The notes below the pieces were generated by a model, which was not told where the DNA came from, made no database searches, and was given only the letters and a program-made list of their open reading frames with translations. A program made the position numbers and the translations under genes. Shown here in pieces: positions 9,009 to 22,932 of a stretch of DNA of 22,932 nt. The stretch is from a virus (Duplodnaviria > Heunggongvirae > Uroviricota > Caudoviricetes): positions 1-22,932 of the IMG/VR virus record IMGVR_UViG_2690316152_000015. One strand, 5' to 3'. Numbering within the stretch: position 1 is the stretch's first letter; every line of letters starts with the position of its first letter.

Positions 9009-9410
9009 TTAAAAACGCGCTAGATAAGAAAATTTAAGGCTAAGTGTCCCAACGATACCCCCATCACTAGAATCATCGTCATAATCGGTATTAGAAGCTA
9101 CTGGAGTGATATCTGAAATAGAGAAGCCCAAATCTTTAAAACGTGGGTTATCCGGCTGAATCTGGATTATCTGGCAAATACCCTCATGAATTTTGGTTTC
9201 ATGAATCTGAGAATATAATTGCATTTCGATAACGCATTCAGCTTGCATTGCATTACCGCCACGAACACGCGTATAAGTTTCATTCATGCCAGTAATCCAA
9301 CAAACCACGTCATCACTAAAGCCTTGCTGAGTTTGTTCTACGTTTAAAGCCAGACCTAAATCTTGTTCGATAATATCTTGCAAGGCGCGTTTGATTTTCA
9401 GTCTCGGCAT
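9009..9410 (-). CDS. Head-tail connector or neck protein
   Basis: Track ORF 9009-9479; likely start is the ATG at 9410 (MPRLKIKRAL...), 4 nt after the upstream stop, avoiding a 65-nt out-of-frame overlap; call by position between capsid and tail genes. Confidence 0.45.
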   Translation of the reverse strand: MPRLKIKRALQDIIEQDLGLALNVEQTQQGFSDDVVCWITGMNETYTRVRGGNAMQAECVIEMQLYSQIHETKIHEGICQIIQIQPDNPRFKDLGFSISDITPVASNTDYDDDSSDGGIVGTLSLKFSYLARF

Positions 9411-14043: not shown

Positions 14044-15948
14044 TTAGAACGATGTTACCCAGCTACGGCCTCTATTTGGACGTCTGGCGATGTTTTGACG
14101 TTGTGGTCGTGTGATTGGCTTACTTTCTTCTATTTGCTCGTCAGATTGCGTTTCAGGAGCTTTTACGGGTTCTTCTGGTTCGCGGTTCAAACTATCTTTG
14201 ATGGCTTCCAGTTTTTCCCATGACATTTTATTAAGCACATGACGATAACTAGCCACGGCATATGTAAGACAGTCCAATCCCTCGTTACGTTGCTGTCCAA
14301 CTTTTACCCAACGTGTCGTATTACCCTGCCGTTTCAACTGTTCAGATAACAATTGTTCGCAGTAGTCATCAGGAACGTCACCAATCTGGAAGACAGTATG
14401 CGGATCGCTGTCTCTCAAGTTCCGGTTAATCATTTCACGGATCATCGTCTTAAGATTGTTTACGCCCAGAATTTTAAGGGTAAAACCGCCCGTTCTTGTG
14501 TCCTTGACCGGAAGGATTGGAGCATCAACATTGCTTGCACCCTTAATGGCGCATAGGTTTTGCCACCTAGTGCAGAAGCGATAGATCACGTTTGTAGCTC
14601 GTCCGTTCGATGAGTCCACGAAAGCAGATAGCATCGGGATTCGTTGACCGGATCGGGTATAGAATTTAGCTTTCAGGAAGTTGTAAAGCTGGTCATATGC
14701 TGGTGATTCGTGGCGTTCGCAGTTCACATCATAGAATGATCGGTGATCAACTACGCATATCCCCTTACGAGAGATACCCAGCAAGGTAGATTCAAGACGG
14801 TCTTTTTGCTGGTCAACACCACTAACCAGAGCAAGTACATCATCAGGAATATTGTCTAGACTAATATCAGTTTTCAGCGTTTCCAGTTCGTCGGCTGTGC
14901 GGTCTTCGTTAAGATCATCGAAGGTTTCACCGAGGACTGTATTGTAGAACGTTGCCAGTGACATATTCGCGTAGCTATCAGCAAAGTCCACCACACACGC
15001 ACGGATAGAACTAAACGGAGACATAAGGCGGTTAGCATGAAAACCGATTACTTCCGCGTTTGGTTCGGTTGCTACCCATTCACCTTGAGCAACAGCACGT
15101 AGGCGAGCCCCTTCTGTCCAATCGGTTTCACATGACGGGCAACGGTAAACGGCTGTGTCAGGATTCGGCAGTGATTTACCATTGATTACATGCCAATCAA
15201 AGAAAACTCTACTCCATTCCATTACGTGTTTGTGTCCGCAATGCTGGCAAGGAACATAGTATTTCCTCTTATCCGAGAGTTCCCATTGTTGGTTTATCGC
15301 CCCATCACGAGCGGTTGGAGTGGAAGCAATTATGATCCTTGCGTCATCCCCGAAAGTGGTTGCGCGTTGTTCCGCTAGTTGGATCGGGTTCCCTTCGTCT
15401 GACTCATCAGCCGCATCAACTTCATCAAGAATAATCAAAGGGAGTGTTTTACCGCGAAGATGTGACGGACTATTCAACGACATGAAATACATGAATGATC
15501 CGTTACGAAGCTGAATAATCGATGAGTTGTTAACGGCATTGCGATCTGACTTGTCGGTGATCATCGCCTTTAATTCTGGGGTTGCCTCTAATACTGGCTT
15601 CACCTTACCCGCAATCCATGAGTTCAATTCTCGAACGTTTGCTTGCAAAACACCGATGTTAGTAGGGTTGCTGGCGATCCTGTGAAAGATAATACCGTTT
15701 AGCACAAGAGTTTTACCCAACTGCGCCGAGCACTTTAGAACAATTTTTCGCCTATCTTCGGTGATCGCGTCCATCATTCCACGTTGGAAGGGATGCAATT
15801 TAATTAGCGATCCGGCTTTAACACCATCGGTAGCAACTACATTAGCCTCTACCCATTCGCTAGGTTTCATGGCTTTAGGTGGGCGAATTGCCGCAGAGAT
15901 ATTTTTAAGAATCTTTTTTAATTTGGCCTTATTAGAAATCAGTTTCAT
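14044..15948 (-). CDS. terL: Terminase large subunit, GpA (lambda A)-like
   Basis: 634-aa ORF; deviant Walker A (CSAQLGKT), Walker B (LIILDEVD), zinc-finger-like CxxC pairs and C-terminal nuclease region as in lambda gpA; first gene of the minus-strand late operon. Confidence 0.9.
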   Translation of the reverse strand: MKLISNKAKLKKILKNISAAIRPPKAMKPSEWVEANVVATDGVKAGSLIKLHPFQRGMMDAITEDRRKIVLKCSAQLGKTLVLNGIIFHRIASNPTNIGVLQANVRELNSWIAGKVKPVLEATPELKAMITDKSDRNAVNNSSIIQLRNGSFMYFMSLNSPSHLRGKTLPLIILDEVDAADESDEGNPIQLAEQRATTFGDDARIIIASTPTARDGAINQQWELSDKRKYYVPCQHCGHKHVMEWSRVFFDWHVINGKSLPNPDTAVYRCPSCETDWTEGARLRAVAQGEWVATEPNAEVIGFHANRLMSPFSSIRACVVDFADSYANMSLATFYNTVLGETFDDLNEDRTADELETLKTDISLDNIPDDVLALVSGVDQQKDRLESTLLGISRKGICVVDHRSFYDVNCERHESPAYDQLYNFLKAKFYTRSGQRIPMLSAFVDSSNGRATNVIYRFCTRWQNLCAIKGASNVDAPILPVKDTRTGGFTLKILGVNNLKTMIREMINRNLRDSDPHTVFQIGDVPDDYCEQLLSEQLKRQGNTTRWVKVGQQRNEGLDCLTYAVASYRHVLNKMSWEKLEAIKDSLNREPEEPVKAPETQSDEQIEESKPITRPQRQNIARRPNRGRSWVTSF

Positions 15949-16035
15949 GTAATTACCCTCATTACGAAATATGAAGGTATTTATTAAGTTGTTGATTTTT
16001 TGATAAATACGGGTATTAAGATTTAAGGGGGTTGT

Positions 16036-16641
16036 ATGCTAATTAATCAGCAACAAAGAGATGAATTAGAATTAGCCTTTTCTTGTTGTACCGATCATGA
16101 ATATCGTTTACCAGTTAAACACAAGCATTTAAAAACAGATATAACCACTTCTGGCTTTAGTCGTGAGGACGCGAAAGAGATTTTAATAGAATTGTACCGC
16201 GATAATGGATATAGAGATCTTCACAACTTCTTTAGAAAGCATCGCACATCACATACAGAGTTTCAGAGAGTCCGAGAATGGTTTGATTTTGACATTAAAC
16301 GGTTCTATCGAGTAGATGGAGGCCAGATCTATAGATTGCAGTGGAAGCCGATCAGAGAAGTGTTGAAACAGACAAGGGATAATATGGCTATTACAATGCC
16401 ACGTAACATAGCTTTTAAGAAAGGATATGGTGATACAAGGGAACTATTCGTTGAACTCGCTAACGTGAAGTACAGCCACTATTACAACGATCCTAAATCC
16501 TTCTTTGAAGTGCTTCGCAAGGTTGATATAAGTCGGGGTACATATTATTCACGGTTGAAGAAGTACGGGATTAAGGTTGAGTTCTTTATGAGTATTGACG
16601 ATGGAGAACTTTTTCCTATAAAATCTAAGTCCTCTAAATAA
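16036..16641 (+). CDS. Hypothetical protein with C-terminal HTH-like segment; low GC, rare codons (moron-like)
   Basis: 201-aa ORF with Shine-Dalgarno AAGGGGG; rich in AGA, ATA, TTA codons unlike neighbours; C-terminal DISRGTYYSRLKKYGIKV resembles the HTH of the two small proteins at 16671-16904 and 20012-20191. Confidence 0.55.
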   Translation: MLINQQQRDELELAFSCCTDHEYRLPVKHKHLKTDITTSGFSREDAKEILIELYRDNGYRDLHNFFRKHRTSHTEFQRVREWFDFDIKRFYRVDGGQIYRLQWKPIREVLKQTRDNMAITMPRNIAFKKGYGDTRELFVELANVKYSHYYNDPKSFFEVLRKVDISRGTYYSRLKKYGIKVEFFMSIDDGELFPIKSKSSK

Positions 16642-16670
16642 AGGTGAACATTCACTTTAATTTGGAGAAA

Positions 16671-16904
16671 ATGACTATGACTACTAAAGCTACTCGCGGT
16701 CGCCCTGCCCGTTTTAACGCTGAACAGATGGCTGATATTGCCTACGCTTACTATACAGCGGATCGTGGTAAGGAAGCGAAAGAACAGATTCTTAGTGAAC
16801 ATGGGATCTCAATCGCCCAATTCTATAAGAATATGAAGAAGTTAGACATTAAATTCTATGTTCAGATCGGTGATGGTCAGATCGTAGAAGCAACAGGTTT
16901 TTGA
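16671..16904 (+). CDS. Small HTH DNA-binding protein (small-terminase or transposase-type HTH)
   Basis: Likely start is the ATG at 16671 (GGAG 5 nt upstream) rather than the track GTG at 16644; motif GRPARF...ILSEHGISIAQFYKNMKK follows the GRP..F...G.S..T.YRWL pattern of Sf6-type TerS and IS3 OrfA HTH domains. Confidence 0.55.
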   Translation: MTMTTKATRGRPARFNAEQMADIAYAYYTADRGKEAKEQILSEHGISIAQFYKNMKKLDIKFYVQIGDGQIVEATGF

Positions 16905-16912
16905 TTCTCTTT

Positions 16913-16938
16913 GCCACTCTTCGGAGTGGCTTTTTTAT
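16913..16938 (+). terminator. Intrinsic terminator for the plus-strand HTH genes
   Basis: GCCACUC-UUCG-GAGUGGC (7-bp stem, UUCG tetraloop) followed by U6. Confidence 0.75.
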
Positions 16939-16949
16939 ACCTACAGAAA

Positions 16950-16978
16950 ACAAAAAAGCCCCTGAAATTCAGGGGCAA
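16950..16978 (-). terminator. Intrinsic terminator for the Rha-family gene (convergent partner)
   Basis: Hairpin GCCCCUGAA/UUCAGGGGC preceded by A6 on the plus strand, giving a U-tract on the minus strand. Confidence 0.7.
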
Positions 16979-16984
16979 AAATTA

Positions 16985-17800
16985 TTACAGTCCAAAGACT
17001 TCCAGAGAGCCAGCATTCTGGCGGATACGTTCAGCAGCTTTATTTTGAATCAGAATAGTGTTGTTCGGTTTAGGCAGATTCAGAGTTGCTTTCTGTTCTT
17101 CTTCCAGAACACCCAATTCAACCAGCACCGGAAGCACATCAACAGTAAACTCAAGCTGGTAATGAGCATTCATGCGGCAGAAAGACAGAGAAGAATCATT
17201 AGCAACATACCCACACGGCTTGTTATTTTCATCATAGACGCGCTCAATATATCCAGCAGTACGCAAGGCCGTCAGTGCTTCTTTAACCTTCGTAGCGCCC
17301 TTTTTAGCGCCTAACAGACGCGTCATTGAATGGCTATCTACAGACTTACGAACATGAAGTTCAATCAGCTTTTTATTTTCGCGAGTTTTCTTTAACGCCA
17401 GTTCGATCCAGTCGGTTTCTTCAAAGTCTGCATACGGGTTAACGGCTAAACGTTCCTGACGCAGTTTTTCATTTTCTTCTTTCAGTCGTTTCCATTCCTG
17501 AATAACAACCAGACGACGATTAACATCGTAACCAGTGACAAGAGTCAGCGTCATTTCTTCGTCTAAGTGATATTCGGTTTGTTCACGTCCACACTGGTCA
17601 AGATAGGTGCGCTCAAAACTGAGCACATCTAATTCCAGAGCATCGAGCATGGATTTAATATCACGTTTAACGTTTTTGTGTTCTTTTCCGGTAAATTCAG
17701 CGATCTGACGGGAAGACATGGTCAGCGGTTTGGTGTTATCAACAACCAGAGACACGGAAGCAGTTTTAACAGCAGTATTCATAACAGTAACAGTATTCAT
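16985..17800 (-). CDS. Rha-family phage regulatory protein or antirepressor
   Basis: 271-aa ORF; N-terminal SSRQIAEFTGKEHKNVKRDI matches the Rha-domain signature as I remember it; C-terminal region resembles antirepressor C-terminal domains. Confidence 0.75.
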   Translation of the reverse strand: MNTVTVMNTAVKTASVSLVVDNTKPLTMSSRQIAEFTGKEHKNVKRDIKSMLDALELDVLSFERTYLDQCGREQTEYHLDEEMTLTLVTGYDVNRRLVVIQEWKRLKEENEKLRQERLAVNPYADFEETDWIELALKKTRENKKLIELHVRKSVDSHSMTRLLGAKKGATKVKEALTALRTAGYIERVYDENNKPCGYVANDSSLSFCRMNAHYQLEFTVDVLPVLVELGVLEEEQKATLNLPKPNNTILIQNKAAERIRQNAGSLEVFGL

Positions 17801-17886
17801 AGTATTAATTCCCCTTAAACGGTTTAGTGATTTGGTCCTCCTAGTTCCGGCATCTCAACCGGAACAATTTTATTTATAAGAAGTTT

Positions 17887-18039
17887 TTATCTCATCTTAG
17901 ATTCGGCAAGACAGCGATCAATTTCTTCTTGAATGAGGCGTTTGCGCTCGTGGAAATCAACCATTGAGAAATTCAGGTTAGGTGTCCACGGTTTGCGGTT
18001 CGGGTTTTTACGTCCATCAATTTTCTTGGTAGTGTTCAT
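17887..18039 (-). CDS. Small basic protein (50 aa), not in the supplied ORF track
   Basis: ATG at 18039 preceded by AAGAGGATG-type Shine-Dalgarno; MNTTKKIDGRKNPNRKPWTPNLNFSMVDFHERKRLIQEEIDRCLAESKMR; lies between the promoter at 18098-18126 and the Rha gene. Confidence 0.4.
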   Translation of the reverse strand: MNTTKKIDGRKNPNRKPWTPNLNFSMVDFHERKRLIQEEIDRCLAESKMR

Positions 18040-18097
18040 AATTAACATCCTCTTTACAAATCTAGGTCAAATCGGTTCAAAGTTGTCAAGTGCGACA

Positions 18098-18126
18098 ATC
18101 ATAAAAAAGCCAGAAAAATTTGTCAA
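18098..18126 (-). promoter_or_regulatory. Sigma70-type promoter directed toward the Rha gene, with overlapping palindromic operator
   Basis: On the minus strand TTGACA (18126-18121), 17-nt spacer, TATGAT (18103-18098); the -35 is one half of the inverted repeat TTGTCAA-N6-TTGACAA (18120-18139); further TTGACA-like hexamers at 18065-18157. Confidence 0.5.
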
Positions 18127-18161
18127 CACCCCTTGACAAGATGCCAAAGGGTTGACCTAAC

Positions 18162-18629
18162 TTACAGCATATCTAAGCCTTCATCATAGCCATAGAAGCC
18201 ATTCTGAGAAGAAAAAGCGATTGGTGCATAGTCATCGTCATCTTCGTCTTGTTCGTCTTCTTCTGGGGCTTCCTGAGCGTTTTCTTTACCGTAGTTAAAC
18301 ATTGCTTCGTCCAGTTCACGAAGAGTCAAGAAGCTACCCAGATCAATGTCACCGGAACGGACTTCAAACGGCAGATCATCACGAACAATAATTGCTGGTA
18401 GATTCTGGTACTTTAAGCGGTCTTCATCGGTGAAGCAGTTAACAACGATGGTCGGCTTCTTATTACGGAAAAACGCATACCATGCACTAGAGAAATGGGA
18501 TTCATCAGAGTTGAAAAGAATGTTGTAACGACGTTCAACAAAGATTTTCATTAACTTGTCATTGTGGAAGCTATCAGCATCAAAACCTAACAGGATGAAA
18601 GGAGTAGTGGTAGTCATTTTATGGTTCAT
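18162..18629 (-). CDS. Hypothetical acidic protein
   Basis: 155-aa ORF with AGAGGA Shine-Dalgarno; C-terminal third strongly acidic (EEDEQDEDDDDY); no recognisable catalytic motif. Confidence 0.55.
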   Translation of the reverse strand: MNHKMTTTTPFILLGFDADSFHNDKLMKIFVERRYNILFNSDESHFSSAWYAFFRNKKPTIVVNCFTDEDRLKYQNLPAIIVRDDLPFEVRSGDIDLGSFLTLRELDEAMFNYGKENAQEAPEEDEQDEDDDDYAPIAFSSQNGFYGYDEGLDML

Positions 18630-18835
18630 AGTGGAAATCCTCTAAAAGAAAGTGAATCAAGTAAGTACACTATTATTTATAACGAGAAAATTTTATCTCT
18701 TTTAGAAGGTGATTGTATTCAGTCGGGCTAAAGCCCTCCTTCATAGATTGTCTAAAAGTACATCAAACGTGGACCCTTCATTATGTAAATTATAGATCAT
18801 ACTCGTTTGAAGAAATAATAATCAGAAAGCAATAT

Positions 18836-18872
18836 AGCAACCGAAGGTTGCAATCCCGAAGGGATACCAATA
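18836..18872 (-). other. Two tandem UUCG-tetraloop hairpins in the minus-strand leader
   Basis: Minus-strand RNA UCCC-UUCG-GGGA and GCAACC-UUCG-GGUUGC, adjacent; upstream of the acidic-protein gene. Confidence 0.4.
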
Positions 18873-18889
18873 CCTTTCATGATCATTAA

Positions 18890-19135
18890 AGTGATCTAGA
18901 ATCATCTAGTAACCAGTTAACTACTATTATCTTCAAAGTGATTATTACTATCTTTCTAGAATCAGTTAGTAACTAGTATTAAATCCCTTTCGAGAAAATC
19001 CTTTCAGAAGTGATTCTCGATGCCACGCAGTGGCGTCGCAGACGTTTGAGAGTGAGCGAAGCGAGCAAGCAAACTAGTTAATTCCTTCTAAGACCATCTA
19101 GTATCATCTAGTTTAAATTAGTTGTTACTAGAAGC
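18890..19135. repeat. CTAG-rich direct and inverted repeats (candidate operator array)
   Basis: Nine CTAG tetramers in about 240 bp; repeated CTAGAATCA[TG][CT]TAGTAAC[CT]AGT at about 18896 and 18957, related CATCTAGT copies near 19096-19115; internal palindromes AGTTAACT and ACTAGT. Confidence 0.5.
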
Positions 19136-19261
19136 AATTGGTTGGCGCTTCGCGCAGTCGGGCTACGCCCTCCTAATATCTTTTTGGTTATTTGTTGTTT
19201 TTAGTTTTACACATGAGCGTAGCGAATGTGTTTATATAATATCTATGTACGCCGAATCCCC

Positions 19262-19447
19262 GCTTTTGCCCCTCACTAAGTTAATGTTTTATAAAGAGTT
19301 TTTCTCACCATTCCTTTTCGGGGGCAAATTTCAGGGGCAAAAATTAGATTTTCAGGGGCAATTATTGACATTTCAGGGGCAAAAATGGGATAGTGGAATC
19401 TTGGGGATTTTGTTCGGGGGCAAAAATTCAAAATTTCAGGGGCAATT
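19262..19447. repeat. Iteron-like array: six direct and one inverted copy of TTYCRGGGGCAA(A) with 21-bp periodicity
   Basis: GGGGCAA cores at 19321, 19334, 19355, 19376, 19417, 19439 (spacings 13, 21, 21, 41, 22) plus inverted copy at 19266-19272; followed by perfect palindrome CTATCAAA-TAT-TTTGATAG (19449-19467) and an AT-rich tract. Confidence 0.6.
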
Positions 19448-19641
19448 TCTATCAAATATTTTGATAGAAAATTCTTGTATATTATTTAACCAAAAAATCA
19501 CCAAAAATCGCTGCAACTTAATGATTTAAAAGAAATTTTCACTTACAAACGCAGTCATAATAGGTTATAAAGGTTGATAATCGTTATTCGCCATTTTCAA
19601 GCAAAATTTTTGATAGTCTTTTCTCGCTTAGATCAAGGGTA

Positions 19642-19670
19642 TTGACAACTGTCAAGAACTATTTTATACT
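19642..19670 (+). promoter_or_regulatory. Near-consensus sigma70 promoter with palindromic operator over the -35
   Basis: TTGACA (19642-19647), 17-nt spacer, TATACT (19665-19670); the -35 lies in the inverted repeat TTGACA-AC-TGTCAA. Confidence 0.65.
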
Positions 19671-19676
19671 TTTTCT

Positions 19677-19834
19677 CGTTGGTGGGGGTTGAAATTTTCT
19701 AAACAGTCCCCATATAGATGATAAGCAAGAATTTCCGCGTTATAAATACATGTGTGAAATGATTGTTCACTTCTGAAAATCCCCTGATTCACTGTTAATT
19801 CATACAGCACTGGTTAGATATACAGTGCTTTTTC
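19677..19834 (+). ncRNA. Candidate short transcript or attenuated leader from the promoter at 19642
   Basis: Predicted start about 19677; intrinsic terminator AGCACUG-10 nt loop-CAGUGCU followed by U5 at 19806-19834; duplicated GATATACAGTG and TTATAAATACA[AT]GTG motifs in the leader; the first downstream gene starts at 20012. Confidence 0.3.
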
Positions 19835-20011
19835 GGTTGAATAATGTACGAATTGATTAATTATTAATCTTCTCTTTAGCAATTCGTGCTCCCACTGATC
19901 GGATATACAGTGGTTTTACAGGGTTTTCTGAAAATCATTTTATAAATACAAGTGTTCAGAGCGAAAAGCTCTTTTTTAAGATTTTTTAAACCTAACAATA
20001 GGGGATTAAAA

Positions 20012-20191
20012 ATGGCTAAACCTGTACGATTCACACGAGAGGTATTGCTTCCGATTGCTAAACGTTATTTTGAAGCGATGCAGGGTGACAAGCTGGCGGT
20101 TTTGAAGGAAGAAGGAATTGATCCTTCTGATTTTAGAAAACTGCTAAAACGATATGACATTAAAGTGAAGATTGAAGCTACCGTTTGGTAA
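20012..20191 (+). CDS. Small HTH DNA-binding protein, paralog of 16671-16904
   Basis: Likely start ATG at 20012 (AGGGGA Shine-Dalgarno) rather than the track GTG at 19952; KPVRF...VLKEEGIDPSDFRKLLKRYDIKV aligns with the 16671-16904 product at about one third identity by eye. Confidence 0.55.
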   Translation: MAKPVRFTREVLLPIAKRYFEAMQGDKLAVLKEEGIDPSDFRKLLKRYDIKVKIEATVW

Positions 20192-20224
20192 TAACCTTTC
20201 ACTGAGAATTATATGATGGCTTTA

Positions 20225-20262
20225 AAAATAAAAAAGCCCCCTTGCGGCAACAAGGAGGCTTT
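20225..20262. terminator. Stem-loop flanked by A-run and T-run (possibly bidirectional terminator)
   Basis: AAAAAA-GCCCCCTTG-CGGCAA-CAAGGAGGC-TTT; 8 of 9 stem positions pair. Confidence 0.45.
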
Positions 20263-20305
20263 CAACATGACACATTAACTAACAAGAGTATTCAGGAGTA
20301 TTTAT

Positions 20306-21265
20306 ATGTTATTTTCCGCTAACTTTTTCACTAACGAAGTAACCAACGCTAAAGCAGTTATCAAATTTGGCACCGAAGCAAACAAGAAGATTCAGCCGAA
20401 AGTTGTTGCTCATGTTTCCTTTGCGCAGCAGAAATCCGCTTTCGCTGGCTTTAAAGCACATCGTGAAGCACTGATCGCGGCTGGCTTTGGTGTTGACGGT
20501 AAACTGCCTAACGGCGTTCGTAAAGCAATCGACCGCGTTAAACCTGCTAAAGACGTTGCAGTAGACCACATCGTTACTTTCACCGTTAAGAACTCTTCTG
20601 AACTGTTCCACCTGGTGATTGCTGGTGATACTGCTATCGTTTCCGCTCCTAACATGGATTTTCAGGATACCGCTGATTGTCAAATCACCTTCGGTCGTCG
20701 TAAAGAAGTTACTGGAAAAGCTAAACTGAACTTCACCAAATCCGGCAATACTTACTTTGCTGTATTCTTTAACAGCCATGCTACCGAGAAAGAAGTTGTA
20801 GAACTGGTTGCATATGAAGGTGAAGAAAAAGCACGTATTGAATCCTGCGACGCTTTCGTAGAACTGGAAGCACAAGTTAAGGCGGTTGCTCCTGTTGTTG
20901 AAGATCGTCTGGCTGCACTGGAAGCAGAGATTGCAGAACTGAAAGCTGCACTGAAAGAAAAAGACCAGATCATCGAAGCCCAGAAAGCTGAGATTGAAGA
21001 ACTGAAAGCTAAAGAAGTTGCTCCAGTGGCAGTTGAAGCCGAACAGGAAGTTGAATCTAAAGACTTCTTTACTCAAGCGGTTGAAGCTAAAGACAAACAA
21101 GCTCTTTGGATTCTGCTTAACGAAAAACGCTCTGTGACCGACGTTGCAGAGTGGAACAAATATCTGGTTAAGAAAAACGGTACTTCTGTTCAATTCATCG
21201 ATTTAATGACTGTTCAAGTTTTTGATGCGTTCGAAAATGTGTTCGACGTTCGCAAAGCAGCTTAA
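20306..21265 (+). CDS. Hypothetical protein with central coiled coil; codon usage of a highly expressed gene
   Basis: 319-aa ORF with CAGGAG Shine-Dalgarno; strong preference for CTG, CGT, GAA, AAA, GCT codons; heptad-like segment RLAALEAEIAELKAALKEKDQIIEAQKAEIEELKAKE; function not recognised. Confidence 0.6.
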   Translation: MLFSANFFTNEVTNAKAVIKFGTEANKKIQPKVVAHVSFAQQKSAFAGFKAHREALIAAGFGVDGKLPNGVRKAIDRVKPAKDVAVDHIVTFTVKNSSELFHLVIAGDTAIVSAPNMDFQDTADCQITFGRRKEVTGKAKLNFTKSGNTYFAVFFNSHATEKEVVELVAYEGEEKARIESCDAFVELEAQVKAVAPVVEDRLAALEAEIAELKAALKEKDQIIEAQKAEIEELKAKEVAPVAVEAEQEVESKDFFTQAVEAKDKQALWILLNEKRSVTDVAEWNKYLVKKNGTSVQFIDLMTVQVFDAFENVFDVRKAA

Positions 21266-21285
21266 TTTTAATTGGAGACCCTACT

Positions 21286-21657
21286 ATGGCAACTTTAAAC
21301 GAAAAAGCATTGTCACGTAAAACTCTGAAAGAGAAAAACATGATTCTTTCTGAAACGCTAAAACAGACTAATGCTGAGTGTGAGTTCTTGACCATTAAAC
21401 TTTCACTTAAAGAGAAAGAATGTAAGGAACTAATTGAAATGAATCGTTCTCTTTTGGAAAAGATGGAACGGATTGAATCCTTCTATGATAGTTACGTGAA
21501 ACTTAGTGAAGACTTTAAAGCCATGCAAGAAGACTACAAGAAATCGTTGAGGGAACAGATTAAACTGCATGAAGAATTGAAGGGCTATCGTGAAAAGGCT
21601 GTTAAAGAAAAGAAAGTACAGAAGATGAAAAACAAAGGATTGCGGCTTGTTGCATAA
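21286..21657 (+). CDS. Hypothetical coiled-coil protein
   Basis: 123-aa ORF with GGAG Shine-Dalgarno, 21 nt after the upstream stop; Lys/Glu-rich helical composition. Confidence 0.55.
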   Translation: MATLNEKALSRKTLKEKNMILSETLKQTNAECEFLTIKLSLKEKECKELIEMNRSLLEKMERIESFYDSYVKLSEDFKAMQEDYKKSLREQIKLHEELKGYREKAVKEKKVQKMKNKGLRLVA

Positions 21658-22380: not shown

Positions 22381-22932
22381 TTAAGACACATCAAATTCAT
22401 CGTCTTCTTCTGGTTCTTGTTCCGGTTCATCCATTAATGGTAATTCTTCTTCCTCGTCTTCTCCTAAATCCGCATTTTCGAACAAGTCCCCTACTTCGTT
22501 TAAACGACGCTCGATGATCTCCCTTAGCTTATTCTTCAATGTTTTCTGATCGGTGGCAGATTCGAGAATTTCTAAAGCGTCGATTGTGGCGATCTGCAAA
22601 ATAGTCTGTTTCACCTTTCCGCAATATTCCGCTAGTTCCTGTTCTACATAACCGACCGGAATCAGGAGATTCATCGCTTCCTGGTTCTCTCGTTCGGCTG
22701 CATCCGCGAGTGCTCTTTCCCGGCGTAATTTCTCGACATCTATTTGTTCTTTGATAGAAGTTTCTTTGAGCGGATTAATGATGTTCTTCAAGACCCATTC
22801 TGTCCCCTCTTTGGCTGGCACGCGTCGTGTATTGGTATTAAATGGCATTCCTCGTTCTTGCCATTTCTTAGCGGCGTTAATTGTATAGCCGTATAAGCGG
22901 GAAATTTCTGTAAGGGTTAATTCTTCTTTCAT
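22381..22932 (-). CDS. Nu1-like terminase small subunit (winged-HTH DNA-binding N-terminus); start coincides with the window edge
   Basis: N-terminus LTLTEISRLYGYTINAAKKWQERGMPF parallels lambda Nu1 (LADIFGASIRTIQNWQEQGMPV, from memory); shared EKLRRE segment; acidic C-terminal tail; located about 6.4 kb from the large terminase gene. Confidence 0.55.
   Translation of the reverse strand: MKEELTLTEISRLYGYTINAAKKWQERGMPFNTNTRRVPAKEGTEWVLKNIINPLKETSIKEQIDVEKLRRERALADAAERENQEAMNLLIPVGYVEQELAEYCGKVKQTILQIATIDALEILESATDQKTLKNKLREIIERRLNEVGDLFENADLGEDEEEELPLMDEPEQEPEEDDEFDVS

Follow-up and report, generated by a model that had tools for sequence, protein, structure and literature searches.

The stretch of DNA analysed here, referred to as the window (22,932 nucleotides, nt; IMG/VR record IMGVR_UViG_2690316152_000015), is part of an Escherichia coli prophage without prior characterisation, which measures ~36 kb in complete genomes and is inserted at ycdX; nothing relevant was found in the literature on a prophage inserted at this site. 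The subject of this report is a promoter and the long leader that follows it, 5′ of a gene for a protein of 59 amino acids (aa). The structural genes of the prophage form a block on the − strand, in which a gpA-type large terminase gene (14044–15948) is followed by portal, capsid and tail genes, and a large serine recombinase is located at one prophage end. A ~7-kb block of small genes, mostly without annotation, separates the terminase gene from the attachment end. Inside this block is a non-coding stretch of 1.4 kb (18630–20011), the right-hand third of which is taken up by the leader. The genes downstream encode the 59-aa protein, then a 319-aa protein and then a 123-aa protein. The region as a whole is predicted to serve a small early-type operon of a temperate E. 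coli prophage, as its promoter and its 335-nt untranslated leader.

Exact protein look-ups placed window genes in E. coli, Shigella and Salmonella, and the prophage family occurs in Providencia as well as in these three. No DNA-level relatives were detected among cultured phages or plasmids, or in the GTDB collection of one genome per species, and the best match of the large terminase among deposited phages had 44% identity. Related loci were drawn from IMG/VR, metagenomes and complete E. coli genomes, and the Salmonella and Providencia loci were obtained via the 59-aa protein. The leader found in the window, termed type A, is one allele of a mosaic cassette and was present in 36 of 5,426 complete E. 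coli genomes (~1%). Strains with this allele include E. coli PEC41 (NZ_CM168023.1) and 266917_2 (NZ_CP026723.1).

The earlier note on this DNA had proposed a near-consensus promoter at the start of the leader, and this was borne out. The site matches the sigma-70 consensus at 11 of 12 positions (Table 1); its −35 hexamer was invariant in 19 distinct relatives, and its −10 hexamer was either TATACT or TATGCT. Only two sites scoring at least 11/12 exist on both strands of the whole window, compared with 0.65 ± 0.83 expected from 100 dinucleotide shuffles; chance does not account for this site, nor for the hairpin and the duplicated motifs described below. Transcription would start near 19677, giving a 335-nt untranslated leader up to the ATG at 20012, with ~157 nt from the start to the first U run. 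Moreover, the −35 hexamer forms one arm of a palindrome, both arms of which were kept in 18 of the 19 relatives, and the two central nucleotides varied (AC, TG, AG, TT or TC). Kept arms with a free centre suggest an operator, and the promoter would then probably be repressible. The other 11/12 promoter (TTGACA-17-TATGAT) is on the − strand at 18126, within 18080–18140, upstream of the genes for a 53-aa protein and Rha. On either side of it are TTGTCAA/TTGACAA inverted repeats similar to the 19642 palindrome, and the two promoters may share an operator; the counts of the TTGTCAA/TTGACAA motif by themselves had no significance.

The leader is non-coding, with 1- and 2-nt indels among relatives and no conserved ribosome-binding site or open reading frame (ORF). 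A leader peptide starting from the ATG at 19718 was considered and rejected, as no Shine-Dalgarno sequence precedes this ATG and indels in relatives disrupt its frame. The predicted RNA is rich in hairpins, and U runs follow these hairpins on the + strand only. The helix of hairpin E1 was 100% paired across the alignment described below, including one U-G to U-A change, and the E1 motif is common to the non-homologous type B and type C leaders (k-mers GGGGTTGAAA and TCCCCATATA). Alleles with another stem sequence at the distal hairpin still hold a stem about the same loop. The lowest diversity in the leader (pi 0.028) was found at the 19846–19889 hairpin, whose 3′ arm CUUUAGCAAUUCGUGCU is a 17-mer common to type B leaders. 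At the ribosome-binding site, AAUCC...GGAUU appears to take the place of the CCUA/UAGG hairpin in other alleles.

Table 1. Features of the promoter, the leader and the first downstream gene, in positions of the window.
Feature	Position	Strand	Basis or remark
Sigma-70-type promoter	TTGACA 19642–19647, 17-nt spacer, TATACT 19665–19670	+	11/12 consensus positions
Palindrome TTGACA-NN-TGTCAA	19642–19655	strand-neutral	left arm is the −35 hexamer; candidate operator, read from sequence
Hairpin E1: GGGGGUUG ... CAGUCCCC, then AUAUAGAUGAUA	19682–19713	+	−11.3 kcal/mol
Distal hairpin with 9-nt loop UAUAAAUAC (first copy of the TTATAAATACA motif)	19731–19760	+	fold, 10-pair stem
Long-range helix, 5′ arm (GAAAAUCCCCUGAUUCACUG)	19775–19794	+	consensus folding, covariation
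Hairpin 1: AGCACUG (19806–19812) with CAGUGCU (19823–19829), 7 bp, 10-nt loop, U5	19806–19833	+	terminator-like, weak
Hairpin of 10 + 4 bp about the palindromic centre GATTAATTATTAATC (19855–19869)	19846–19889	+	−12.5 kcal/mol, z = −5.4, 0/200 shuffles
Hairpin 2, duplicate of hairpin 1: CCACUG-N10-CAGUGG, then UUUUAC	19892–19913	+	local fold possible
Long-range helix, 3′ arm (CAGUGGUUUUACAGGGUUUUC)	19908–19928	+	covariation
Proximal hairpin, again with loop UAUAAAUAC (TTATAAATACA motif, second copy)	19936–19954	+	just 5′ of E5
E5: AGAGC-GAAAA-GCUCU (19958–19972) and U6	19958–19977	+	sole leader element listed by the terminator scan
Ribosome-binding region: CCUA/UAGG hairpin over the Shine-Dalgarno sequence AGGGGA (20000–20005), ATG 20012	19992–20014	+	fold, sequence
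59-aa gene	20012–20191	+	small three-helix protein (predicted); the prophage encodes two paralogues of it
Strong 14-bp hairpin between the 59-aa and 319-aa genes	20232–20263	−	U run on the − strand only

A terminated leader of ~160 nt, ending in a hairpin with a U5 tail, had also been proposed. The hairpin itself is present: hairpin 1 has a local minimum free energy (MFE) of −10.5 kcal/mol (z = −2.8), a fold equalled by 1 of 200 shuffles, four of its seven base pairs are G-C, and the T run lies at 19829–19833. The distance of ~157 nt from the predicted start to this U run also agrees with the proposal, but the full leader is 335 nt long and carries two more elements consisting of a hairpin and a U run. 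Hairpin 1 was missed by the terminator scan because its 10-nt loop exceeds the 8-nt limit of the scan. Among relatives its stem is kept and six of the ten loop positions vary; the basal pair 19806:19829, A-U in the window, is G-U in one relative and G-C in another. This pattern is what would be expected for a terminator hairpin. The tail reads UUAUU in one relative and CUUUU in another.

The most constant of these elements is E5, which is located ~35 nt before the start codon and directly 5′ of the ribosome-binding site, with a stem of 5 bp and a stability of about −6 kcal/mol. Hairpins of the E5 type, GAGC(G)..(C)GCUC followed by U5–8, were found 30–40 nt before the start codon in leader types A, B, C and D and in Providencia, making E5 the only predicted terminator-like element common to all leader alleles. 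A terminator discriminant with a threshold of 0, reportedly that of d'Aubenton-Carafa et al. from 1990, was also applied. Calculated with this formula, the discriminant d was about −11 to −18 for hairpin 1 and −31 for its duplicate, hairpin 2, and for E5 it ranged from −2 to −5 in the window allele and from +6 to +10 in other alleles. Hairpin 2, with a stability of −8.6 kcal/mol (z = −1.05), was rejected as a second terminator on account of this value and its lack of covariation.

The duplicated motifs named in the earlier note were both exact, and the duplication turned out to be more extensive than had been claimed. GATATACAGTG occurs at 19817–19827 and 19902–19912 and TTATAAATACAWGTG at 19740–19754 and 19940–19954; neither has a further copy in the window, and neither pattern was matched in shuffles. 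In addition, the whole of hairpin 1 is duplicated over 25 nt with 84% identity (19808–19832 and 19893–19917), and TTCTGAAAATC also occurs twice. The motifs are arranged in mirror order, as TTATAAATACA, TTCTGAAAATC and GATATACAGTG followed by GATATACAGTG, TTCTGAAAATC and TTATAAATACA. They are the arms and loops of paired elements and not independent repeats.

Covariation was analysed in an alignment of 19 distinct leaders of type A together with a diverged one from Salmonella (L043), and the consensus fold was derived from the same alignment. The fold contains E1, the two hairpins with the UAUAAAUAC loop, hairpin 1, the 19846–19889 hairpin, E5 and a long-range helix that encloses hairpin 1. Overall, 99.2% of the sequence-by-pair cells of the consensus model were standard pairs, and two pairs showed compensatory changes. 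All nine pair-disrupting variants were singletons, whereas 8 of 16 pair-preserving variants occurred in several sequences (Fisher one-sided p = 0.012). In the long-range helix, 97.8% of the cells were paired, and only 1–4 of 500 shuffles reached the observed values (4/500 for the covariation score). Here the segment CACUG at 19790–19794, upstream of hairpin 1, covaries with the 3′ arm of the second GATATACAGTG copy: the pair 19790:19912, with 19912 in this copy, is C-G in 17 sequences, A-U in one (L034/L037) and U-A in one (L043). By contrast, the same variants give mismatches in the local pair 19893:19912 of hairpin 2, which is broken in three variants, and hairpin 2 showed no covariation, with 500 of 500 shuffles doing as well and its covariation score reached or exceeded in 477 of 500. 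Since position 19790 covaries with position 19912, 80 nt past hairpin 1, RNA beyond hairpin 1 appears to be under selection. Selection on a helix spanning hairpin 1 could reflect either a common read-through RNA or a short RNA that pairs in trans with the long RNA; either way, a 157-nt RNA species is not the whole story.

The stability of the entire leader was in line with a structured RNA. Its MFE had a z score of −3.5 and the + strand was 13 kcal/mol more stable than the − strand, and both strands folded better than shuffles; the first 164 nt by themselves did not outperform shuffles (z = −0.85). A duplex of −68.6 kcal/mol was predicted between the two halves of the leader, 5′ and 3′, compared with −48.2 ± 5.3 kcal/mol for shuffles, and the leader as a whole is a large imperfect inverted repeat centred on GATTAATTATTAATC. 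Its three CACUG and two CAGUG segments allow alternative pairings, such as the local hairpin 2 versus the long-range helix. None of the structures seen in the leader is in specific competition with hairpin 1 or E5. Two further pairings were rejected. A helix of 19832–19839 with 19896–19903 in the consensus fold has a high share of G-U pairs and is missing from the Salmonella relative, and an 8-bp anti-Shine-Dalgarno pairing of AAUCCCCU (19778–19785) with AGGGGAUU (20000–20007) is not conserved across alleles and was dropped as a general feature.

Comparison of relatives revealed a mosaic organisation. All E. coli relatives have common flanks of ~83–93% identity, which comprise 18620–19387 (extending into an iteron array) and the start of the 319-aa gene, and the ~530 nt from the iterons to the ribosome-binding site occur in several unrelated forms. 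Type B, found in most IMG/VR relatives, has two tandem 12/12 promoters and a different leader of ~410 nt; in locus L001 (4225–4281) the two perfect sigma-70 promoters abut and each has a TG extension. Two or three TGTAGG copies are located beside or within the promoter of type B leaders. Type C, represented by locus L032, is the same as type A over its first 165 nt and diverges thereafter. In type D and the Providencia forms, from Salmonella and Providencia, a sigma-54-type promoter (TGGCAC-N5-TTGCA) precedes a B-like or other leader. In loci L041–L044 this near-consensus element lies ~400–500 nt upstream of the small gene in place of the E. coli sigma-70 promoters and is preceded by the inverted repeats TTTCACCAC...GTGGTGAAA. 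Salmonella loci L042 and L044 carry a palindromic TTGACAACTGTCAA promoter only ~50 nt before the last hairpin. These forms follow a common plan, in which one or more strong or dedicated promoters are followed by an untranslated leader of 85–430 nt, a GAGC(G)-loop-(C)GCUC hairpin with U5–8, ~30 nt of sequence and the start codon. Transcription into the leader would thus be a constant feature of the locus, because the allelic leaders also have very strong or dedicated promoters.

Short modules are shared among the alleles in differing order and copy number. They include GGGGUUGAAA-N12-UCCCCAUAUA, the 17-mer CUUUAGCAAUUCGUGCU, the hairpin with the UAUAAAUAC loop, and a hairpin with a GA(A)UAUAC loop, whose stem is CACUG/CAGUG in types A and D and UUGAU/AUCAA in type B. 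The proximal hairpin is found at about −71 from the ATG in type A, Salmonella and Providencia with different stems (CAUUU/AAGUG, ACUUU/GAAGU and AAUUU/GAUAUU). The same loops on different stems form a pattern of RNA hairpins and not that of a dimeric DNA operator. In addition, the short motifs TTATAAATACA and CTTTAGCAATTCGTGCT are conserved as sequence across alleles. The alleles of the small gene, whose proteins are 50–67% identical, recombine separately from the leader alleles, with the breakpoint at the U run of the last hairpin, and E5 therefore looks to be the recombination boundary between a leader module and a small-gene module. No protein gene within 15900–19400 co-varied with leader type as a cognate repressor would, and the ORFs at the far end of the prophage had no Pfam hits. 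The leader cassette thus recombines independently of the flanking protein genes, which fits a self-contained cis-acting element. A structural homology between types A and B was considered and rejected, as a type A covariance model matched type A and gave only a weak 57-nt partial match in type B (E = 0.05–0.8); the type B sequences were too alike for covariation analysis.

Taken together, we favour, with a probability of roughly 45%, a cis-acting structured leader that attenuates transcription via leaky terminators, chiefly E5, and that probably also restrains translation initiation of the 59-aa gene. RNA polymerase would start near 19677 at the strong promoter, which a repressor probably gates via the −35 palindrome. 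As the nascent RNA emerges, it would form the local hairpins E1, the two with the UAUAAAUAC loop, hairpin 1 and that at 19846–19889, and the long-range helix would close a domain of ~155 nt about local hairpins. The polymerase would meet two leaky signals resembling intrinsic terminators, hairpin 1 with U5 and then the conserved E5 with U6. Because none of the three hairpins is a strong terminator, partial termination is expected, and only a fraction of the transcripts would reach the ribosome-binding site, itself held in a small hairpin. The leader would in this way set, and possibly conditionally change, the expression of the downstream genes. The prematurely ended RNAs of ~157 nt and ~300 nt would be by-products. 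The shorter of them could also act in trans on the long RNA, as it would carry the 5′ arm of the long-range helix, whose 3′ arm is present in read-through RNA only. The earlier note had offered a small RNA (sRNA) or an attenuator as alternatives. The strong conserved promoter, the long non-coding structured leader and a hairpin with a U run on one strand all support that proposal, but hairpin 1 is weak by the discriminant, the conserved terminator-like element is E5, and the covariation spans hairpin 1.

Several observations weigh against an attenuating leader. Covariation events are few, namely two double changes that arose independently at a single pair, plus a basal pair, and both the consensus structure and the covariation were taken from one and the same alignment. 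Whole-model values were reached by 10–13 of 500 shuffles, which is within the range for related sequences without structure. Diversity in the leader is no lower than around it (pi 0.09, compared with ≤ 0.01 at the adjacent gene start), and conservation was accordingly rejected as a sign of leader function. All three hairpins score below 0 by the discriminant in the window allele, and a 10-nt loop as in hairpin 1 is atypical of a terminator. The anti-Shine-Dalgarno match reaches −13.6 kcal/mol in the window and is no better than shuffles in 12 of 20 alleles. Type B leaders lack the type A domain, so that the specific fold is not essential to the locus. Moreover, the leader and the window ORFs yielded no sensor, no leader peptide and no antiterminator, whether structure or protein, and conditional control is therefore purely inferred.

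Other explanations have to be set against these findings. It is doubtful that the promoter serves a stand-alone sRNA of ~157 nt (19677–19833), ended by hairpin 1 and acting in trans on host or phage mRNAs or on the read-through leader. A strong promoter is indeed followed by a conserved hairpin with U5, the stem of which is kept and the loop free, and IsrK (PMC4825925) and StxS (PMC7547250) are precedents, with c4 as a further likeness. However, the hairpin is weak, with its 10-nt loop and only five U, its tail is altered to UUAUU or CUUUU in single relatives, the first 164 nt fold no better than shuffles, the RNA has no Rfam match, and types B, C and D have no equivalent early terminator. The partner of position 19790 lies beyond the terminator, and trans pairing of a short with a long RNA would give the same covariation, but cis pairing accounts for it equally well. 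An arrangement like that of lambda PR′, in which the promoter is always on, most transcripts stop at E5 as a ~300-nt RNA and a phage antiterminator is needed on induction, is similarly improbable. It would explain why E5 with U6 is universally conserved just before the gene and why relatives have extremely strong promoters, and PR′ and StxS of Shiga toxin (Stx) phages are a precedent. Pfam, PHROGs and NCBIfam searches of the window, though, gave no antiterminator-like protein of the Q, N or any other type, and the late genes are on the opposite strand and not downstream; the E5 stem has only 5 bp and about −6 kcal/mol, Salmonella relatives have a promoter only ~50 nt upstream of E5, and the −35 palindrome suggests a repressible rather than a constitutive promoter.

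A role at the DNA level, in which the repeats bind phage proteins (the three small paralogues or Rha) or belong to an origin together with the iterons and the RNA folds are incidental, would draw on the 1.4-kb non-coding region with 6–10 iterons at 21–22-bp spacing just upstream, on the inverted repeat about GATTAATTATTAATC, on the better-than-shuffled folding of both strands, on the conservation of TTATAAATACA and CTTTAGCAATTCGTGCT as sequence across alleles and, in Salmonella L043, on an inverted pair of iteron-like TAGTGTAGG on either side of the TATAAATA motif. We regard it as unlikely, since many of the pairs, being G-U, would be mismatched in DNA, and the + strand is the more stable by 13 kcal/mol. 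Furthermore, stems change while loops stay constant, the reverse of a dimeric DNA operator; U runs come after the hairpins on a single strand; no neighbouring protein gene co-varies with the leader alleles; and no replication protein was found among the profile matches (Pfam, PHROGs, NCBIfam). Least probable is an ordinary long 5′ untranslated region produced by mosaic recombination, in which hairpins and repeats are remnants of duplication with no role beyond mRNA stability. The locus is a recombination hot spot with several unrelated alleles and high diversity, the hairpins are individually weak and the covariation events few, all of which such a region would show; it would not account for the confinement of pair-disrupting variants to singletons, two independent compensatory changes at one base pair, modular hairpins that recur in non-homologous alleles, Salmonella and Providencia, or the universal E5 arrangement.

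Leader-based regulation of the kind proposed has been documented in prophages, and the closest analogue in logic would be the Gifsy-1 isrK-orf45-anrP operon of Salmonella. In Gifsy-1, isrK yields a 77-nt RNA with a Rho-independent terminator, past which part of the transcription continues into a 45-aa ORF and an antirepressor-like gene; the long RNA is inactive as folded, and the short RNA activates it in trans (PMC4825925). As in Gifsy-1, the locus described here has a promoter followed by a predicted terminator-bounded short RNA that would be partly read through, a very small ORF (45 aa in Gifsy-1, 59 aa here) in front of a larger gene, which in Gifsy-1 is a phage regulatory gene, and a 5′ RNA segment complementary to the downstream leader, where in Gifsy-1 alternative folds decide translation. 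The differences are considerable. The two have no sequence or structure homology and no Rfam match relates them, the present leader is four times longer with up to three terminator-like hairpins, and the 319-aa protein has no detectable similarity to antirepressors. In addition, translational coupling is unlikely here because 115 nt and a hairpin separate the small ORF from the next gene.

In the P1/P7 immI and P4 CI systems, a regulatory RNA is part of the untranslated leader of its own operon, repeated or complementary blocks are present, and the whole forms a self-contained, swappable module. The leader described here likewise combines repeated and complementary blocks, and its module differs among relatives without changes in the protein genes; like C4-type RNAs, it is an element within the untranslated leader of its operon that is complementary to other blocks of the same transcript. 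Unlike these systems, it has no recognised RNase P-type processing signal, and its complementarity to the ribosome-binding site is not conserved. A permissive cmscan of 19100–20400 gave no match at E ≤ 10 to the Rfam C4 family, which includes P1/P7 c4, P4 CI/SeqA and IsrK, and returned only chance snoRNA matches from other families in the leader; a scan of the window at gathering thresholds found only ALIL. In P1 immI, the c4 antisense RNA, Icd and Ant are encoded within one operon (PMC8201110), and IsrK has been linked to the P4 CI/SeqA RNAs (PMC4825925).

Lambdoid PR′ units, as exemplified by 6S RNA and StxS, also have a strong promoter with one or more intrinsic terminators (here predicted) within a few hundred nt, and in Stx phages the PR′ promoter is constitutive and its early-terminated transcript is the sRNA StxS (PMC7547250). 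In contrast to these units, the promoter described here has a palindrome over its −35 element and looks repressible, and the downstream genes are neither lysis nor structural genes; no Q-family gene was found among the window ORFs tested, nor, by Pfam only, at the far prophage end. The immI region of P22 (Pant-arc-ant with sar) is similar in its very strong promoter, its small DNA-binding-type protein (53–59 aa) followed by a ~300-aa protein and its opposite-strand element between the two genes, to which the − strand terminator-like hairpin at 20232–20263 corresponds here. P22, however, has no long structured leader, the proteins have no detectable similarity, the small protein is predicted to be helical here and not ribbon-helix-helix, and no − strand promoter was found close to the gene start. 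Finally, neither a conserved leader ORF nor an Rfam cis-regulatory family was present as the sensing element of a classical attenuator, and a ToxIN-like type III toxin-antitoxin system is not indicated either: there is no tandem ~36-nt array, the repeats being dispersed and mirror-image, and the downstream protein has 59 aa and no PADLOC hit. In sum, the element would work like described leader regulators and is a member of no described family.

A more far-reaching possibility, to which we attach a low probability, is a new self-contained RNA cassette for control or immunity. Here the ~157-nt RNA, released at hairpin 1, would pair in trans with read-through transcripts as they emerge, through the two arms of the long-range helix (19775–19794 with 19908–19928), and decide termination at E5 or translation of the 59-aa gene. 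Leader types A–D would be specificity variants swapped among E. coli, Salmonella and Providencia prophages without their protein genes, and the logic would be that of P1 c4 and P4 CI in an unrelated RNA family.

The first downstream gene had been described in the earlier note as a small helix-turn-helix (HTH) gene. The predicted structure of the 59-aa protein is a three-helix bundle (pLDDT 80) that makes HTH plausible, with homeodomain and Fis-type HTH folds among its weak PDB hits, but no profile or fold match was significant, the best PDB match having E = 2.2. Three paralogous small proteins of the prophage (16036–16641, 16644–16904 and 20012–20191) have a common C-terminal motif, ...GI..S.FYK.LKKY.IKV..., and no family match in Pfam, PHROGs or NCBIfam. 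None of the 59-, 319- and 123-aa proteins had a significant hit in these databases or PADLOC, and the 319- and 123-aa proteins have no known relatives outside this phage group. An exhaustive HMMER search of 1.84 billion representative proteins recovered 11 members of the 319-aa protein family, some homologues of which carry the RefSeq label "coiled-coil domain-containing"; its AlphaFold2 (AF2) model was unusable (pLDDT 39.6). The first ~250 nt of the 319-aa gene (20300–20560) are near-invariant DNA in 17 relatives (pi ≤ 0.01, including 4-fold sites), with flanks of pi 0.1–0.2, and this island suggests an overlapping nucleic-acid element or a recombination anchor. On the + strand, the hairpin at 20232–20263 would be at most a weak stop. 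A promoter-like site on the − strand at the 3′ end of the gene (TTGCCA-16-TAAAAT, 10/12, 21265–21292) could, together with the terminator at 20232–20263, give rise to a long antisense transcript of the 319-aa gene.

The non-coding DNA upstream of the leader holds further elements. Just upstream of the promoter region are six iterons TTTCRGGGGCAAA with 21–22-bp spacing (19316–19448, and 19259–19273 on the other strand); E. coli relatives have 8–10 copies, and Providencia and Salmonella relatives have arrays of other repeats (TAGTGTAGG, TAGTGCAGG) in the same place. The array at 19316–19448 is a candidate for origin iterons or an operator array. The preceding 680 nt (18630–19310) are non-coding and conserved among relatives, and could include a further RNA, or a site for packaging or replication. 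Within them are three copies of CTAG-rich 19-mers (TCTAGAATCATCTAGTAAC-like), a repeated CAGTCGGGCTA..GCCCTCC element at 18721 and 19157, and three C-GAA-G mini-hairpins (18841–18855, 18857–18869 and 19057–19063).

Elsewhere in the window, a match to the terminase small subunit family (PHROG 57, E = 3e-15) was found on the − strand at 22381–22932, 6.4 kb from the large terminase gene, and the early-type block including the leader thus lies between the small- and large-terminase genes. An IS3-family transposase (1–888) with an ALIL frameshift pseudoknot (Rfam RF01497, 60 bits) adjoins the tail end of the prophage. ARAGORN reported a tRNA-Gln (anticodon UUG) on the + strand at 9154–9244, within − strand structural ORFs, which is either a false positive or an embedded tRNA. 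In one relative, L020 (E. coli PE15, NZ_CP041628.1, 10202–14855), an ISApl1-mcr-1-pap2-ISApl1 composite transposon sits just 3′ of the 319-aa gene homologue, an example of colistin resistance carried by this prophage family.

The leader lies at the centre of what must be the decision and replication region of the phage, and it is the one part of that region with a readable anatomy. This anatomy is unusually rich, with mosaic modules and a covarying long-range helix across a putative terminator in a widespread prophage family, and the likeliest function is nonetheless a conventional one: most likely, by analogy, a transcription and translation checkpoint like those guarding antirepressor genes in other prophages. 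If the leader is only a leaky attenuator, it would be an ordinary feature of phage early operons. If it is such an RNA checkpoint, it would provide an experimental handle on induction control in this prophage family and would extend the small set of phage regulators encoded in leaders (c4, CI, IsrK and StxS) by a new RNA family.

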